DNA of 64,000 nt from Carcharhinus amblyrhynchos (lineage: Eukaryota): positions 53,382,001-53,446,000 of the forward strand of contig OZ336874.1 of assembly GCA_965287045.1 (NCBI GenBank). Direction: 5' to 3'. The position numbers and the translations under genes are program-made. Under the pieces are notes generated by a model that was not told the origin of the DNA, did no database searches, and worked only from the letters and a program-made list of their open reading frames with translations. Below, piece after piece: positions 13,826 through 58,534 of this stretch (positions within the stretch are counted from its first letter, which is position 1; every line of letters starts with the position of its first letter).

Positions 13826-15429
13826 AAATTACTCTGCTAAATTTGTGACCTAGTGGCAAAGTTGAAAATTTCTTCCCATATTCTCAACAGCTGGGAACTC
13901 GCTCACTACATTAGATACAAAGCAGTGTTTAATTGCAACACAGGTACGATTATTGCGAGAAAAAGGCCACAAGGATGGAGGAGAGTCAGCTACAATTCTA
14001 ATGCTGACTTGCAGGGCAAAGCTGTGGGTGGTTTTACTGTAACAAAGTTATTGTGTATGTTTATTACATGTATACGGTACACATCCTCTTGAGATAAACA
14101 GTCACAAATTCTTCAGGGCCTCCAAAGGGAAAACAAGATTTAGCTCAACGCTAATTTGCTGTGAGGCCCCTGTGGTGAGATTATTATGCACTAAAAATTC
14201 TACAGGAGATAACATCTACAAACCAGGTCTAAAGAAAACATAAATATCAAAACAACTTAAAGACTTTGGAACTAAAATTTGGAATCACAAGAAATGAGAC
14301 TAGATTTTTACTCTTTCACTACTACATATTGTTATGAAAATTTAATAGCTGTTTAAAAAAGAAAATTTATTTTAAAGTTGACTTGGCCCTTGAAGGAATT
14401 GTGACAGAATCTTTATAACTTGATATTTATAAATAAAAATGACATTTCACCATGTTTGAACTGAAGCTAAACTACAGCATCCATTAAAATGTGACCTTCA
14501 GAGGCCTCCGATAGATTGATCGCACATCACACTGGTTGCATGCACTTAAAAGAAAATTGAGGTCAATTAGATAAACCCTTGAGTGATAAAATCACAACTG
14601 AGTTGGGATCAACTTCAGGAGGGTTGGTCACTCTTCTTGCACTGGTCGTACTATTAAAATTAATAATAATTAATAGAACAGTGAAGGATAACGGTATGAT
14701 TTTCCTAAGGTAAATCAGAAGAAATTGGTCTGATGAAGGTATTTTTATCATACCAATGGAAATACAATTTTATTTTATTTTCATGTACCTTCACCACAAA
14801 AGAGTTGTGAAAATAAGGTAAGTGATGTCTGACGGAGAAGCACAAGCCAGATATTTAACCAAGTGGTTGTGATGACATTTTAAACAATGTGAGAAAAGCT
14901 TGAGCTGTTTATGAATGTGAACAGAAATATAATTGACTGCCTGAGACCAACTGCCAACTATTTATTATTCCTTGTAATCCATATAGTATATAGCTTGTTT
15001 GCAGTGGAGTGGGGGAGTTGGGTAAACACTAAAGTACTGATTTGAACTTGGGCTGCAGATTGTTATGGCGAGGGTAACGGGACATGTGGGATATCACCAA
15101 AATAATGGCAATATGAGCTTAACAATTTTAGTTGATCGATGGACTGCCCTCCAGATTGTGCAACATGGCTGACCCACCCATTGTTAGTGCTATATGCAAC
15201 AGGTCACCCAAGAGTATTTAAAACAGGAGTGTATCTCTTAAAGCAAATGACAGCATAGATACTGAAAAGAGAAACATGCCTGTTGAAGATTTTTATTTTG
15301 CACTCGTCAGGAGAAACACAAAAATGCCAAATTTCAAATGATCACAACGGTTTATGCTAAAGGAGAAAAGAACGTTGATTGGTTGGCAAGTCGACTCTGA
15401 TTGGCCAAAGTGTTACCATGGAGCATTTG

Positions 15430-17600: not shown

Positions 17601-18439
17601 AGAACCCAACATGCAGCCTTGCAACTTTTTGCATTACCCGGGAGTTTGAGGAGCCCATGTTTCCCTGTTGCTTTCTCTAGAGCGATGTCTTGGCCAATCA
17701 ACACCCTTTTCTTCTGTAATATAAATTGCTGTGATTGTTTGAAAGTGGGCGTTCTTGCATTTGTCCTGTTGAGTGCAAGATGAAAAGCTTCAGTGACATG
17801 TCTTTCTTTTCAGCAATATTCACGTTTGGTAACTACCAAGCAAATAATATCTACAAGATGTAGATATTATTCCCTCCAGTTCTCTCAACACAAACTGCTA
17901 ACACCTGGTTTAACTCTCCCACTACACCCCACCACCATCACCATCACCACTTCCAAAATTCTCTCTCATCCATTATACCCTTCAACATAGCATCACAAAC
18001 TCCCCTCTTTCTTTTCAAATCACACTCACCTCTTCCTTTATTCACTTCACCCCACACACTAATGCCATTCATTCTCTTCTCCCAACAAACAACTTCTCCC
18101 AGAACTCTTTCCTTACTTTACCTTCCATACATTTGGCTGGGCATTCATCATCAAACCCTATTTTAACCCTGTCACGCTTCATCGACTCTCATCACGCCCA
18201 CCAAACGTAAGAGCTGCATATTTCAACTTAGCTTTTTGATGGCCACTTGCTTACTCTGTCTAAAAGACTCGATATATAGGACGAGATTCTCCGATCTTGT
18301 TCATGGCCACCTCTGTTGGTGAGAACAGAGAATTTGATGTTCAGGTCAAAAATCCATTCACTTTCAGTGGCACCAGAAAATCGCAGACACGATCGAAAAT
18401 GGAGATTTTCGGTGATAATGTCAGCCAGAGGAAAAAGAC

Positions 18440-20961: not shown

Positions 20962-21177
20962 TAATATATCTGCTGGTCATGATTAAGTTATTTCGTCCAT
21001 TGCCATTTAAATATTAATTTAGAAATGAAAGTAAACTTTCATTTTTGTTTGAATTGTGCGCTGAAATTGGACAGATGTCTCAGCAAAAACAAGTGTCCTT
21101 CCATGAAATATTATTGCATTCTGTGAATGGCAATGAATTTAAAGCAAGTAATCATTTGATAATACAGACCTTGAGTG

Positions 21178-21377
21178 TTGCTGAAAAGAGATGTTTGTCA
21201 AAGCTTTTTGTCTTGTACTCATCAGGACAATGCCAGAGTACCATGACAGGGGAAAGAATAACTTTAGACTGTACTCTTGTACAGTACAAAGTTGTTGTTC
21301 CCCTGTCACTGATATTCTTGCCATTGTCCTGGTAAGTGCAAGATGAAAAGCTTCTAAAACTTCTCTTTGTTTGGCAA
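21178..21377. repeat. ~200 bp fold-back element (family A), one hammerhead motif per arm
   Basis: Arms are imperfect reverse complements around loop 'tctt' (~21276-21279); motifs at ~21195-21230(-) and 21324-21354(+). Confidence 0.85.
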
Positions 21378-21729
21378 TATTTAAATTTAAAGCAATATTT
21401 TAAAAATATGAGTCAGGTATATGTGATTAATGTGCACACTTAAATCTATTATACAGAAGTGAACTATTCTCCAGAGCAATGTTGGATCAATATGGCACCT
21501 TTGTGACTAATCAAGTTGCTTTGACAGAGTGCCCACTCATTAACAATCTGAATGCAAACTAAACAGATCACTGAAAAAGAAACATTGCAGCTTTAAAATA
21601 TGTAGTTTTGATGCAATTTCTAATACTGTATTACTAAATATTATTAAAAGTTAAATTCTCAGGAAACTTGCATGAAGGGAGTGCGCCTCCAGTAATTGAG
21701 TATTCTTCTCATTAAAGTATTGAGAATGA

Positions 21730-26879: not shown

Positions 26880-27600
26880 ACCTGCCAATGATCTTTTGAA
26901 GTTCAACACTATTCCCCAGCAGCCACTCATAGAGTCTGGATGTTGGCCTGAAGAGGTGCAACACGTGGAACTCAATAGATGAAGGAATTTATCCATTGAG
27001 TTCTGGGTGTTGCACCTCTTCAGACCAACACTCAGACTCCATGAGTGGCTGCTGGGAAATAGTGTTGAGGAATTCACCTACAAAAAAACATTCCAGCTGG
27101 ACATTTATTGAGCAGAAGTCTTTGTTGTTTAGGAATCTGGGCAGCTGGCCTGTCAGTGTCTTGGTGGATATGGGTACAATATTCCTCTGGACCTGAGGGA
27201 ATCTATCAATGGTAGAATACTCCCAAAGACCTCTGCACCTGTGCTGACCCAGCTGTCTCAAAGTGGATGCATTCCCCTGCCCTTCAGAACAGGGCATCCA
27301 TGACCTGCCTGATCGCGTGAGCTACCAACTGTGAAGTGTCACTCAGCTCCACAGCTGATCTCTGGAACAACTCAGATGAGTAAATATTTAAGTGCCACAG
27401 TGATTTTGATGACTGCAGGTAGTGGATTGCTATGGAGGCCACAAGACACCATCAGATTACTGTGGAACAGAGTACAAATGTCCAAGATCATCGGTCTGGA
27501 TAGGTGCAGTCTCCTATGGCATTGGCACTGTGTCATATTTAGGTACCTGATTCTTCAGTGATACACCCAATGTCTTGGGTATCACCTTCTTCTCCTCACA
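26880..27600 (-). pseudogene. PIF/Harbinger (HARBI1-like) transposase remnant
   Basis: Minus strand: 'YLNMTQCQCHRRLHLSR...LPAVIKITVALK...IRQVMDALF...FPQVQ...FLNNKDFCSINVQLEC'. Confidence 0.85.
26903..27068. repeat. 81 bp inverted repeat, 4 nt loop
   Basis: 26903-26983 vs 26988-27068; 10 mismatches by manual alignment, no gaps. Confidence 0.95.
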
Positions 27601-31286: not shown

Positions 31287-31470
31287 TGAATAAAAGCAAA
31301 TTATTGCAGATACTGGAATTTGAAACCAAAAGAGAAAATGCTGGAAAATCTCAGCAGGTCTGGCAGCATCTGTAAGGAGAGGAAAGATCTGACATTTCGA
31401 GTCCAGATGACTCTTTGTCAAATCTTTCAAAGCCAGACCTGCTGAGATTTTCCAGCTTTCTCTCTGTTGA
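31287..31470. mobile_element. Fold-back element (family B) with decayed hammerhead
   Basis: 'gctggaaaatctcagcaggtctggc' inverted with 'gccagacctgctgagattttccagc'; minus strand UUGACAA-A-GAGUC-aucug-GACUC-GAAAUGUC. Confidence 0.8.
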
Positions 31471-49159: not shown

Positions 49160-49448
49160 CATACCAACCAACTCATGCGCAGCTTCTTCCCTGCTGCCGT
49201 CAGATTGGACCAACCCTGCATTAAGTTGATCTTTCTCTACACCCTAGCTATGTCTGTGACACTACATTCTGCACTCTCTCATTTCCACCTCTATGAACAG
49301 TGTGTTTTAGCTTTATAGCACACAAGAAACAATACTTTTCATAAGACATACATTCGCAGATTTGCGAGTGTATGTCACAGATTTGACTTGATTTGATTTA
49401 TTATTGTCACATGTTAATATATGTGACAATAAATCAAATCAAGTCAAA
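49160..49448 (+). mobile_element. Rex1/Babar-type LINE 3' end with rearranged tail
   Basis: 'TNQLMRSFFPAAVRL', 3' UTR, tail 'atgtgacaataaatcaaatcaa'. Confidence 0.7.
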
Positions 49449-51572
49449 TCTGCAACTTACACTCGGCAAGCTTACAATGGCTCAATTATCCTAGTTTCAG
49501 GAGCGATCACAGCTCCAATGCAAAAACACTACCCTATCTTCTACATAGCTAAAGGTAGAAGCCGATGGAGTGGATATTTTCATTAGGCTTGGCTTCAGAT
49601 TTGAAGACCCCCATCAGAGCACATGTTAACACTTTCGATGACTTTACATGATTATTTCCTTCCTTAGTGGTTTTGGGAGATTAATCTGTGCTGTAATTTC
49701 CTCATGTTGGCAGATCAGTTCCAGGATTTGGTTGTAGACATCTAGCATCAACAGATGGTAGATCATCTTCATCAGTAAAATTTAGATCAAATATCTTGCA
49801 GGTTCATGCAACCGAGTAGATGTCATGCTTAGCCATACTACTATTGCAGAGACGTCGGCAATGGTGAAGCAACTTGCAATGTTTAAGATTACATGATTAC
49901 AGTGATTTCACACATGACTGAAAATCTTGTTATGCGAGAAGGGTTGGAGGCAGAATCAGCGACAGACAGTGTACTTCAGAAAGTAAGCTAGTATCTATAA
50001 TTCAAATAGCTTTGTGAAATAGTGGAAGAATTGATTCCGTACTACAAAGTACGCAACGAGTTTGCATTGTTTGGTGATAACTATATTGCAAACTGAATTT
50101 GAACGGTTATCCCCAAAGCGCTAAAGCAAAGCGTATTATATCTTATCCATGCAGGACAAGATGTTAAGATGAAACAACAATCCTGTGAATCAGTCTGTTG
50201 GCCAGGGATAGATTGCTGCATGCGAGAGTTCATTGGTGTAGCTTGTACACTCAGTGAAAAATCTGTTAAACCATGTCCCACCTCTCCAGCTCCAACCCCA
50301 TGACCAACAAAACCATGGCAACAATTCCAAGTAGATACTTTTGGAGAAGAGGAAGCAGTCCCTAGGAATCAATGATTTTTGCTTGTTGTTCATGGTGGGG
50401 CCGTGAGAGGTCAGTCTATAAATTATTCTTTGAGTGCTGGACCCCACTCCCGCCAGTGACAAACTTCCCCAATCACCCCACCGTCTGCTTTCTTTCACTG
50501 GCTATTTTTTGACCATCAGAGGGAATCTGCCTGCTGACTAAAATGTTCCAGCCGGTGTTGGAAATCGAGCTTTAATTGCTTCAGTTGGTTCATTGCTGCT
50601 TGTGGGGCAGGTATCTGTTGTGCCTCTGATCCAGCTTTTGTTGAAAATGGCTCAGAGCTGGGCAAATGCCAGCAAACCGGTCTGTCACTAACACTGTGGA
50701 AGTTGCCAGAGAAGTGCACGATGGCAGACTATTGGTCAACAAACTGCACATTGAGAGATTAGCATGCTTTCCTGTTCATGTGTACCTGGCAATTTTTGCA
50801 GGGAGCCGTATGAATTCCACCACCGATCCTGGAGCTTGAGAAATGCTGGTATTCATTAAAACTACAGTGTTCTGTTTTGTTAATGCAAGTTGTCCAAGGG
50901 AAAACTAATGAAGTCATTGGCTCTAGAGAATAATGAATCTGCAAATTGCTCATTGCATTTGTACAGCTGTTTGATCTACACATCTCTCCAGTGACAAAGT
51001 GGAATTTTAAAAATGGCTAAGTGGTTGAACGTGGTGACAACCTGAGCAAACACTGGCAAAATCCAATGGTAATGGGTGCAAGTCTGCTTGCAACATAACT
51101 CACTGACAGTTTTATTTAATAATGTGAAATGTCCACACATTATTCTCCAAGTTAGGAATACATCTGCTGAAATACAATGATGCTGGGGGGTTAGTGATGG
51201 GCGGAGTGTTATGGTGCAGCCTCACCACCTTTCATTTCATTCCATGCACTTTCCAAGAAATAAAGTTAGAGAGAAATCCTCTTAGGAAGCTCATTAGACC
51301 CTGGCTCCATAATGCCCATATTTTCTGTGCTAGTGGCACTTGGGTAAAGACATTAATCTTGTTTTTATGTTGTATTCAAGTCCTTGGGACTGCAGTGTTG
51401 GCATTGACCTCCATGGCTATGTGCTCCAATTTCCTTTTAAGCACTTGTCTGAAGTGCCTTTTTGTCCCCTGTGGGAAGAGGATTTCTTTCCTCTTGAATA
51501 CCTCTTGCATTAGGGCCTTGACTATTGCACCAACAAATTGGGAAAGCTACACTCTGCCATCCTTTACCATAT

Positions 51573-55185: not shown

Positions 55186-55925
55186 TTAAATCATGCTAAA
55201 ATGCAAAGTCATATTTTAGCATATCTATTAGGTGCATGTAAAAAGCAGAGGTCAAGTGGTTTATGTAAAATATATTACAAGGGTGATTTTGACCCTGCAT
55301 TGGCCATGCACAGGATTGCCGACATGGGCGCAAAATTCAGAGAGAATCGGAAAATGCAACAATTGGCGTTTGCTGGCGAGATCATGATTTCTGATTTTCA
55401 ACCCCCCTTGCTGGTGGAGTAATGTGAAAAACACTGCAAAAGACTGGGAACCTCATTTAGTATGTCATCAGCAAGTCATTCACATGTTAATAGCAAGCAC
55501 TCACCTCCCCCCTCCAATATTCAGCGGGCACTGGTGTGATATTATGCCACTGCAATTTACAACAGCTTTATAAAACTTGGTAAATATGTGGGATTATGGG
55601 TGGGGATAGGGCCTGGGTTGGATGGTTGTAGTCGGTGCAGACTAGACGGTCTAAATGGCCTCCTTCTGCACTGTAGGGTATTCCAACAACGAACTTACTA
55701 CCTCCAGAGGTGAGAGCAGCAGTGTGAAGAAGACTATGTCTGACCCGGGGGAAGATGGACCACCTTTGTCAGGTTACGCAAGGGCTGGAACCAAATGGAT
55801 TGGGAGATCATCCATTGCCGGTGGTCCTGAAATTTGACAGCACTCTGAACTTCTATGCCAGTGGCTTATTTCAGGACTGTGTGGGTGACCTGTGCAACAA
55901 CTCCCATTCAGCTATGCACAGGTTA

Positions 55926-58534
55926 TGATTAAGGATAGCATCACGGTGGTAGCAAGGGATGATATTGGAGCCAAGGAGCAGAGGGTGGAATCGTTGTGGG
56001 TGGAGATTAGGAACAGCAAAGGGAGGAAGACGCTGGTGGGTGTCGTCTATAGGCCCCCGAATAATGATCTGGAGGTGGGGCGAGCTGTTAACGCGCAAAT
56101 AAGTGCGGCGTGCAGGAATGGGACGGCCGTAGTTATGGGGGATTTCAATCTGCATATTGATTGGTCGACCCATGTTGGACGCGGGGGGCTCGAGGAAGAG
56201 TTCTTGGAATGCTGCCGGGATAGTTTCCTCGAACAGTGTGTGTTGGAGCCGACGAGGGAGCGAGCTATCTTGGATCTGGTGCTATGTAATGAGGCGGGTA
56301 GAATTAGGGACCTTGTGGTGAAGAATCCTCTTGGGGAGAGTGATCATTGTATGGTGGAGTTTCTGGTGCAGATGGAGGAGGAGAAAGTGCGTTCCCGGAC
56401 ACGCATCCTTTGTTTGAATAGAGGGGAGTATGGTAGGATGAGAGAAGAATTGGCGAATGTGGACTGGGGGAGCGCGTTGGAGGGAGGGTCTGTTGAGGAG
56501 CAGTGGAGGATCTTTAAGGAGATCTTTCTTGGTGCTCAGCAGAAATTTATTCCGATGGTCAAAAAGGATAGTAGGAGGAGAGGTAATAAGCCGTGGATAA
56601 CGAAGGAGGTGAAGGAAAGTGTTAAACTAAAAGCGGAGGAATTTAGAGTAGCTAAGAGTAGTGGGCGAGAAGAGGATTGGGAGAGGTTTAAATGTCAACA
56701 AAGATTGACAAAGAAGTTGATAAAGAAGGGTAGGAGAAACTATGAAGCTGGGCTAGCGCTTAATATAAAAAAGGATAGCAAGAGTTTTTATAAATATATA
56801 AAAAGGAAGAGGCTGGCTAGGGTGAATGTTGGTCCTTTAGAGGATGAGAAAGGGGACCTAGTGGTAGGGGATGGGGATATGGCTAAGGTATTGAATAACT
56901 TTTTTGTTTCTGTCTTCACGGAGGAGGACGTGAATAATTTGCCGGGTGTTAGCGATGGAAAGGTGGTAGGACTGGAGGGTCTTAATGACATTACTGTTAC
57001 TAGAGAGGCGGTGCTCAACAGACTGGAGGGGCTGATTGTGGACAAGTCCCCAGGACCGGATGGAATGCATCCGAGGGTTCTGAAAGAAATGGCGGAGGTT
57101 ATAGTGGATGCCTTGGTGGTTATTTTCCAGACGTCGCTGGATTCCGGGGAAGTGCCGGATGATTGGAAAACGGCTAAAGTTACGCCGTTGTTTAAGAAGG
57201 GTGCCAGGCAAAAGGCGGGGAATTATAGGCCGGTTAGTTTAACGTCTGTGGTAGGTAAAATGTTAGAATCTGTCATTAAGGAGGAAATTGCAAGGCATCT
57301 TGAAGGGAATTGCTTGATAGAGCAGACGCAGCACGGTTTCATTAAAGGGAAGTCGTGTCTGACAAATTTACTGGAGTTCTATGAGGATGTGCCTAGGGCG
57401 GTGGATAGAGGAGAGCCGGTGGATGTGGTCTTTCTAGATTTTCAGAAGGCGTTTGACAAAGTACCTCACAAGAGGTTATTGCAGAAGGTCGAGGGACATG
57501 GAGTTGGGGGTAGGGTGTTAGCGTGGGTGGAGGATTGGTTGTCAAATAGGAGGCAGAGAGTGGGGGTCAACGGGTGCTATTCGGATTGGCGGATGGTGAC
57601 TAGTGGAGTGCCCCAGGGGTCGGTGCTGGGGCCTCAGCTTTTTACCATTTATATAGATGATCTGGAGGAGGGAACCGAGTGTAGAGTGTCGAAATTTGCT
57701 GATGACACCAAGATTGGGGGAATGGCAAATTGTGCGGAGGGTGTGGAGAGTCTACAGAAGGATCTAGATAGGCTGGGCGAATGGGCCAGAAAATGGCAAA
57801 TGGAATTTAATGTTGGCAAGTGTGAGGTGGTCCACTTTGGTAGGAAGAATGGTAGGAAGGACTATTACTTACGGGGCGAAAAACTGCAGCAGGCCACGGT
57901 GCAGAGGGACCTCGGGGTCCTTGTGCATGAGTTGCAAAAACCCAGCTTGCAGGTGCAGCAGGTGGTCAGGAAGGCGAATGGGATGCTGGCCTTCATAGCG
58001 AGGGGGATTGAATATTAAAGTAGGGAGGTCTTGCTGCAGCTGTATAGGGCATTGGTGAGGCCGCAGCTGGACTACTGTGTGCAGTTTTGGGCGCCGCACC
58101 TGCGCAAAGATATTTTGGCCTTGGAGGGAGTGCAGAGGAGGTTTACTAGGCTGATACCGGAGTTGAGGGGGTTGAACTATGAGGAGAGGCTGAATAAACT
58201 AGGCTTGTACTCGTTAGAGTTTAGAAGAATGAGGGGAGATCTCATTGAGACGTATAAGATGATGAATGGGATGGATAGGATAGAGGTGGAAAGACTCTTC
58301 CCGCTCAAAAAAGACAGTAGGACTAGGGGGCACAGCCTCAAGATAAAAGGGGGGCGGTTTAGAACGGAGTTGAGGAGGAACTTCTTCACTCAAAGGGTGG
58401 TGACTCTCTGGAATTCTCTGCCCGTTGAAGTAGTGGAGGCTGCCTCGCTAAATATTTTTAAGACGCGGGTTGATGGGTTTTTGATAAGAGAGGGGATTAA
58501 GGGTTATGGGGAGAGGGCAGGAAAGTGGAACTGA
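55926..58534 (+). pseudogene. CR1 ORF2 (APE endonuclease + reverse transcriptase), N-truncated, one in-frame TAA at 58016-58018
   Basis: Motifs GDFN, SDH, QHGF, DFQKAFD, GVPQGSVLGP, FADD; ORFs 55892-58018 and 58031-58534 are in the same frame. Confidence 0.95.

Follow-up and report, generated by a model that had tools for sequence, protein, structure and literature searches.

A hammerhead-bearing fold-back in Carcharhinus amblyrhynchos is a decayed insertion stub of a Penelope-like retrotransposon

Results and discussion

The window analysed here is a 64,000-nucleotide stretch of the genome of Carcharhinus amblyrhynchos (contig OZ336874.1, forward strand). A first-pass annotation had described within it a 200 bp fold-back with a minimal hammerhead ribozyme in each arm. 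The fold is real: the segment 21171-21392 has a predicted folding energy of -115.7 kcal/mol (z -16.4), which was equalled by none of 200 shuffled sequences, and the arms are 78% complementary over 188 nt. The limits were misplaced, as the insertion is a 236-base hairpin at 21148-21383 between exact 12-bp direct repeats that had been overlooked. Its parts are as follows.

21136..21147, + strand: left direct repeat, 12 bp, A+T-rich, likely target-site duplication; identical to 21384-21395
21148..21274, - strand: left arm, a 5'-truncated element 3' end including the tail; reference positions ~2648-2776, 84% identity over 122 nt by pairwise alignment
21148..21172, - strand: tail of ~25 nt, on the left arm only; runs into the ORF in full-length copies
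21195..21230, - strand: decayed minimal type I hammerhead, from sequence and column counts; first core box intact, G12>A and C17>U
21268..21284, no strand: head-to-head junction, where both 5'-truncated arms meet at a GTAC palindrome
21275..21383, + strand: right arm, a 5'-truncated 3' end; reference positions ~2643-2752, 82% identity over 109 nt; short end, no tail
21324..21359, + strand: decayed hammerhead, from sequence; A6>G and G8>A, two of five helix I pairs broken
21384..21395, + strand: right direct repeat, 12 bp, second copy of 21136-21147

The 12-bp repeats are in register with both element ends, and a common 12-mer was found in only 2 of 20000 random flank pairs drawn from the window; the repeat is likely a target-site duplication. 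At the junction the right arm extends ~5 nt further 5' than the left. The letters of both hammerhead motifs had been read exactly in the first-pass annotation, to which the A6>G, G8>A and helix I lesions of the plus-strand arm must be added.

In sequencing runs labelled as seven organisms (A-G), contigs cross one or both boundaries between element and flank and differ by at most ~5%, so the insertion is shared among those organisms and is old. No empty, pre-insertion site was seen among the joints listed for the 8 of 22 runs examined. An RNA-editing scar between the arms was also looked for, and plus-strand A>G changes (9) against T>C changes (5), which are partly CpG effects, gave no signal. 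As to host genes, 48 of the 62 open frames of the window were scanned and the sole match was a LINE ORF at 55889-58531 (+). This ORF is G+C-rich, encodes endonuclease and reverse transcriptase domains, is open for 709 aa and, after one stop, for 171 aa more, and it looks young. Most repeat families of the window are, we presume, abundant SINE and CR1-like 3' ends.

The parent element

With the insertion as query, 1376 candidates were obtained from the 2.9-Gb genome and 40 of these were scored. Most of the scored matches cover one arm and then continue into a longer body. Successive upstream searches of genome copies allowed a 2.77-kb reference to be assembled for this family, here called family A, and showed the arm to be the 3' end of a ~2.8-kb coding element with a reverse transcriptase (RT) and a GIY-YIG-type endonuclease. 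The Penelope origin proposed in the first-pass annotation was thus borne out by extending the copies upstream. Among the loci gathered, 121 copies cover the 3' end and 2 reach the 5' end.

The reference translation reads as a Penelope-like element (PLE)-type RT followed by a C-terminal GIY-YIG-type domain with no Zn-finger linker between them. A profile built from 18 unaltered fragments found 122 proteins (best E 1e-126), nearly all of them with RVT_1 together with PF28514 or PF26215; at E<=0.001 the homologue representatives numbered 16196. The reference is 65% identical to one homologue, P0002, over 418 aa. In Pfam the degenerate family fragments gave RVT_1 at E 0.027 only and nothing above the cutoff, and no GIY-YIG match was found in any family fragment of this genome. 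A Pfam GIY-YIG match is carried by P0100, from the same homologue list, and fragment L082 aligns with the C-terminus of another homologue, P0007 (45%, E 2e-34); the putative assignment of a C-terminal endonuclease to family A rests on such intact homologues. No homologue was found when a single fragment was used as the query, none was found by a PDB profile search, and no intact ORF was present among the genome copies gathered.

The combination of a C-terminal endonuclease with no Zn-finger linker would place family A, by exclusion, in a Penelope/Poseidon-like clade, the clade features being taken from PMC8557442. A literature search, with Repbase and Dfam outside its scope, found no description of this particular PLE family.

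Two near-full-length, interrupted copies of family A retain both terminal repeats.

L136, G000:C1:75078000-75087500: near-full-length, interrupted copy, both terminal repeats
L137, G000:C28:9965000-9974500: near-full-length, interrupted copy, both terminal repeats

Both keep the pLTR-ORF-pLTR layout in one orientation, and the hammerhead motif is present in each repeat. In these copies the tail passes directly into the ORF. By tblastn, the last 48 nt of the element match residues 15-30 of P0007 (75% identity, E 0.003). The outer part of each arm of the insertion therefore corresponds to the ORF start. The translated tail region of its left arm likewise resembles the N-terminus of P0007. The nearest in-frame AUG of family A lies within the first hammerhead core box and is inferred to be the start codon.

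The hammerhead motif across the family

A hammerhead pattern made degenerate at CpG sites gave 108 genome matches, and its reversed control gave 0. The family majority keeps both core boxes and the cleavage triplet, with a palindromic helix III, in line with the minimal type I hammerhead originally proposed. The consensus quoted with that proposal agrees with the CpG-restored form of the family; the majority sequence, on the other hand, reads UG at both core CpG sites, and the restored form has no exact match in the genome. The idea that the G12>A and C17>U lesions fall in ancestral CpGs held up: the G12 site is CG, TG or CA in 82 of 109 arms (CG in only 3) and the C17 site in 93 of 108 (CG in only 6). 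Allowing wobble pairs and U17, all core letters are kept in 11 of 101 arms and the ancestral form in none. Family A is old, with a mean identity of 78% over 180 long alignments (best 90%).

Neither arm of the insertion passes the core-letter test, even with wobble and U17 allowed, and as both cores carry mutations both motifs are predicted to be inactive. An Rfam scan of the window detected no hammerhead at E<=1. Hammerhead variants with a very short helix II were reportedly described by Lunse et al. in 2017.

A bias of TG over CA at the two core CpGs (0.71 and 0.72) was considered as a sign of selection on the ribozyme and was rejected, the 94 CpG-like sites of the family spanning 0.17-0.84; over all such sites TG and CA total 1681 and 1650. 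Comparison of 125 family A arms and 31 arms of a sister family, B, revealed no fixed two-sided change. One shift in helix I keeps its pair, being U-A in 89 of 116 family A arms and U-G in 26 of 31 family B arms.

In the predicted ensemble of the isolated motif, helix I is absent (P 0.0) for both the majority and the CpG-restored sequence, and an alternative hairpin prevails (P 0.81-0.99). In this hairpin a stretch upstream of helix I pairs with the loop and helix II; it is kept in families A and B without covariation, and as a folding prediction it offers a lead only. Cofolding of two cores predicted no dimeric hammerhead, a weak negative since tertiary contacts and protein are needed for folds of this sort. 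The two motifs of the insertion lie on opposite strands and face apart, so that any single transcript has only one of them in sense, and therefore the two cannot form a dimer in cis. Whichever strand is read through, folding predicts that the sense motif is base-paired with the antisense arm of the same transcript.

Family B and other fold-backs of the window

Two further copies, at ~15280 and ~17760, had been taken for members of the same family as the insertion. Sequence comparison with both families showed that they belong to family B, to which they score higher (209 vs 138 and 225 vs 144).

15262..15426, - strand: single family B 3' end, 5'-truncated; hammerhead core shared with family A, flanks different
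17694..17839, + strand: single 5'-truncated 3' end of family B, tail present

Family B, with 1838 genome candidates, shares the hammerhead core; its 3' region is shorter, and it has an endonuclease end distinct from that of family A. In tblastn, 7 of 29 family B loci (L201-L229) matched P0002 at its endonuclease end.

Three other hairpins were noted in the window. The short fold-back at 31338-31458 bears on its minus strand a hammerhead-like core that is decayed and differs in sequence; it has a weak Rfam microRNA match and is likely a stub of another PLE family. The one at 26937-27034 has a first core box on each strand and represents a third hammerhead-like family. At 49363-49467 there is a near-perfect 105-nt hairpin whose arms are made of 5-nt repeats; it matches MIR8706 at 60 bits, below the 95-bit cutoff, and is probably a repeat fold-back and not a microRNA.

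Joins, ends and the origin of the fold-back

The insertion very probably consists of two 5'-truncated 3' ends of the endonuclease-bearing PLE, set head to head between the direct repeats, and is likely the product of one old event in which both cut strands primed reverse transcription. Other explanations were weighed against the structure of the family as a whole. Head-to-head joins outnumber tail-to-tail joins by 59 to 2 among 132 loci with matches. These loci came from several queries, a number of them biased towards fold-backs, and duplicates were removed approximately. The truncation points at the joins lie anywhere between positions ~200 and ~2715 of the reference, and every join has a junction of its own. 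Elsewhere in the genome, two motif matches at G000:C16:4883053 and 4883747 face each other, tail to tail, 0.7 kb apart, which is the rare orientation.

The first 30 of the 108 CpG-degenerate motif matches, 6 of which score better to family B, served as a sample that was blind to junctions. Their 5' ends are spread over 1780-2693. Truncations were accordingly not concentrated at the edge of the ribozyme or at its cleavage site in this sample, although a query with the whole motif misses arms that start at the cleavage site.

The first-pass annotation had inferred a non-coding, retrozyme-like derivative, which would spread as a 200-bp unit by means of its two ribozymes. Ten short fold-backs of 210-480 bp, the present one included, were indeed recovered in the first search, with the element as query, and animal retrozymes are described as derived from PLE pLTRs (bioRxiv 10.64898/2026.07.22.740005). 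Yet the junctions of the ten are all different. In the motif-selected sample 11 of 30 copies have an adjacent inverted partner, only 2 form a short fold-back and none has a direct tandem partner. Same-strand motif pairs occur at 3 of 186 motif loci, 0.98-4.1 kb apart; two of these are full-length elements and none is an array, so that no short head-to-tail arrays of the retrozyme kind were found. Both cores of the present copy are broken, its motifs face apart on opposite strands, and its arms are truncated 3' ends of a coding element that include the ORF start. Spread as a miniature ribozyme-bearing unit is therefore very improbable.

The 3' ends of the motif-selected copies fall into two groups, near 2739-2756 and near 2764-2777. 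When insertions with two ends were collected (38, the present one included), 31 had one long and one short end, 6 had two short ends and 1 had two long ends; a few of the 38 may be neighbouring insertions, and 26 of the 31 long-short cases have a clean junction. This degree of long-short pairing was reached in none of 20000 permutations. In-register direct repeats of at least 9 nt, with at most one mismatch, flank 14 of the 31 against 57 of 930 mismatched pairs, their lengths being 9-16 nt, and repeats of at least 12 nt flank 6 of the 31 against 3 of 930. The remaining 17 have a repeat under 9 nt and no clear duplication, which is put down to age.

These ends also bear on whether the hairpin could be a MITE of a DDE transposon, with inverted repeats that resemble a hammerhead by chance. 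Its small size and hairpin shape would suit a MITE. Against this, the ends are unequal, with a tail on one side; the flanking repeats vary from ~9 to 16 bp and so lack the uniformity of DDE target-site duplications; the junctions are not the same from copy to copy; and the arm leads without a break into an ORF for RT and endonuclease. A DNA transposon, which the first-pass annotation had also rejected, is almost certainly not the source.

A more serious alternative is self-priming, in which one cDNA, or one antisense template, would form a hairpin at a short palindrome and then be copied back along its own length. Palindromes at inverted junctions have been interpreted in this way in PMC3846280. 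The present junction lies at the GTAC palindrome, the starts of its arms are no more than ~5 nt apart, and both arms carry two variants that are rare in the family (6 of 115 and 7 of 113 arms). Simple copy-back predicts, however, that the arm with the tail will be consistently longer, or consistently shorter, than its partner. Over the 26 clean junctions it was longer in 12, shorter in 9 (p 0.66) and equal in 5, as fits two independent cDNAs, and many family junctions show gaps or filler in place of palindromes. Self-priming may account for the present symmetric copy; the fixed polarity it predicts is absent in the family, and as the origin of the structure it is rather unlikely.

Priming from both cut strands could proceed as follows. 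The element protein would nick both strands of A+T-rich DNA ~12 nt apart, and each nicked 3' end would prime a cDNA at one of two internal start sites, ~25 nt apart and just downstream of the ribozyme. Both cDNAs would stop early, after 110-125 nt, their inner ends would be joined at the GTAC palindrome, and fill-in would yield the 12-bp duplication. The twin-priming step is borrowed by analogy from another species, in which the protein of an anole PLE cuts and extends both strands and prefers A+T-rich DNA (PMC11167929). In the same account two internal start sites define the tail and ribozyme cleavage is not needed for insertion (PMC11167929). The hammerhead of the present insertion is a passenger of the pLTR.

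A bolder idea, which we regard as improbable, has two parts. In the first, the stubs would record coupled use of the two start sites by one dimeric PLE protein, one site per cut strand; this is suggested by the 31 of 38 long-short pairs, which are independent of arm length. In the second, a built-in hairpin would keep the ribozyme off, the 6 nt immediately 5' of helix I being predicted to pair with the loop and helix II in both sister families. As the ribozyme also overlaps the start codon, it would work as a switch, triggered by the protein, that decides between translation and cleavage.

Comparison with known systems

An inverted 5'-truncated copy with a tail on one side is a published arrangement (PMC8557442, PMC3846280). 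Pen2a_Av of Adineta vaga (PMC3846280, with a scheme in PMC8557442) has the same head-to-head inverted truncated copy and a tail at one end. Its duplications are given as 8-10 bp (PMC3846280), compared with 12 bp here, and its pLTR overlaps the first codons of the ORF by 12 aa, or 22 with the tail; the corresponding overlaps here would be ~17 and 25 codons, provided that translation begins at the AUG in the core. Unlike Pen2a_Av as described there, the arms studied here have been shortened to 110-125 nt and retain only the pLTR end, the tail is ~25 nt, and the copies are old and CpG-decayed.

Poseidon PAc of Anolis carolinensis (PMC11167929) is alike by its description, with RT and C-terminal GIY-YIG domains and an ORF that starts at the hammerhead. 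PAc and family A share two 3' ends that define the tail and A+T-rich targets. PAc is active and was tested in vitro (PMC11167929). A further difference from the PAc account is that the nearest in-frame AUG of family A lies inside the first core box and the element ends only 30-55 nt past the core.

Minimal hammerheads sit in the pLTRs of PLEs, and those of metazoans have the short helix I and palindromic helix III seen in the present motifs (PMC4209133). Helix II is 2 bp as drawn for the present motif and 7-8 bp in the Schistosoma motifs of that paper, in which opposite-strand hammerhead pairs 100-700 bp apart are ascribed to truncated PLEs (PMC4209133). Cleavage of minimal hammerheads as dimers is covered in a review (PMC6765202). 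The non-LTR retrozymes of animals (PMC7229834; bioRxiv 10.64898/2026.07.22.740005) have the type I hammerhead and PLE pLTR ancestry in common with the present element. They are described as head-to-tail tandem repeats with same-strand ribozymes (PMC7229834), whereas the present element is a head-to-head pair with no array. Nor does the retrozyme trait of being without protein-coding sequence apply, since the ORF start forms the end of the arm and, in long copies, arm and ORF are continuous.

Conclusions

The locus is a decayed Penelope/Poseidon-like insertion stub in a published layout and not a new non-coding element; inverted pLTRs, one-sided tails and opposite-strand hammerhead pairs have all been published already. 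As a fixed, decayed insertion of known layout, this single locus carries little weight. For annotation, Penelope stub is the proper label for hairpins of this kind, which should not be entered as MITEs, microRNA hairpins or retrozymes. The counts across the family, with a long and a short end per insertion, 9-16-nt duplications and an arm length independent of the tail, can be compared with the in vitro reaction of the anole element.
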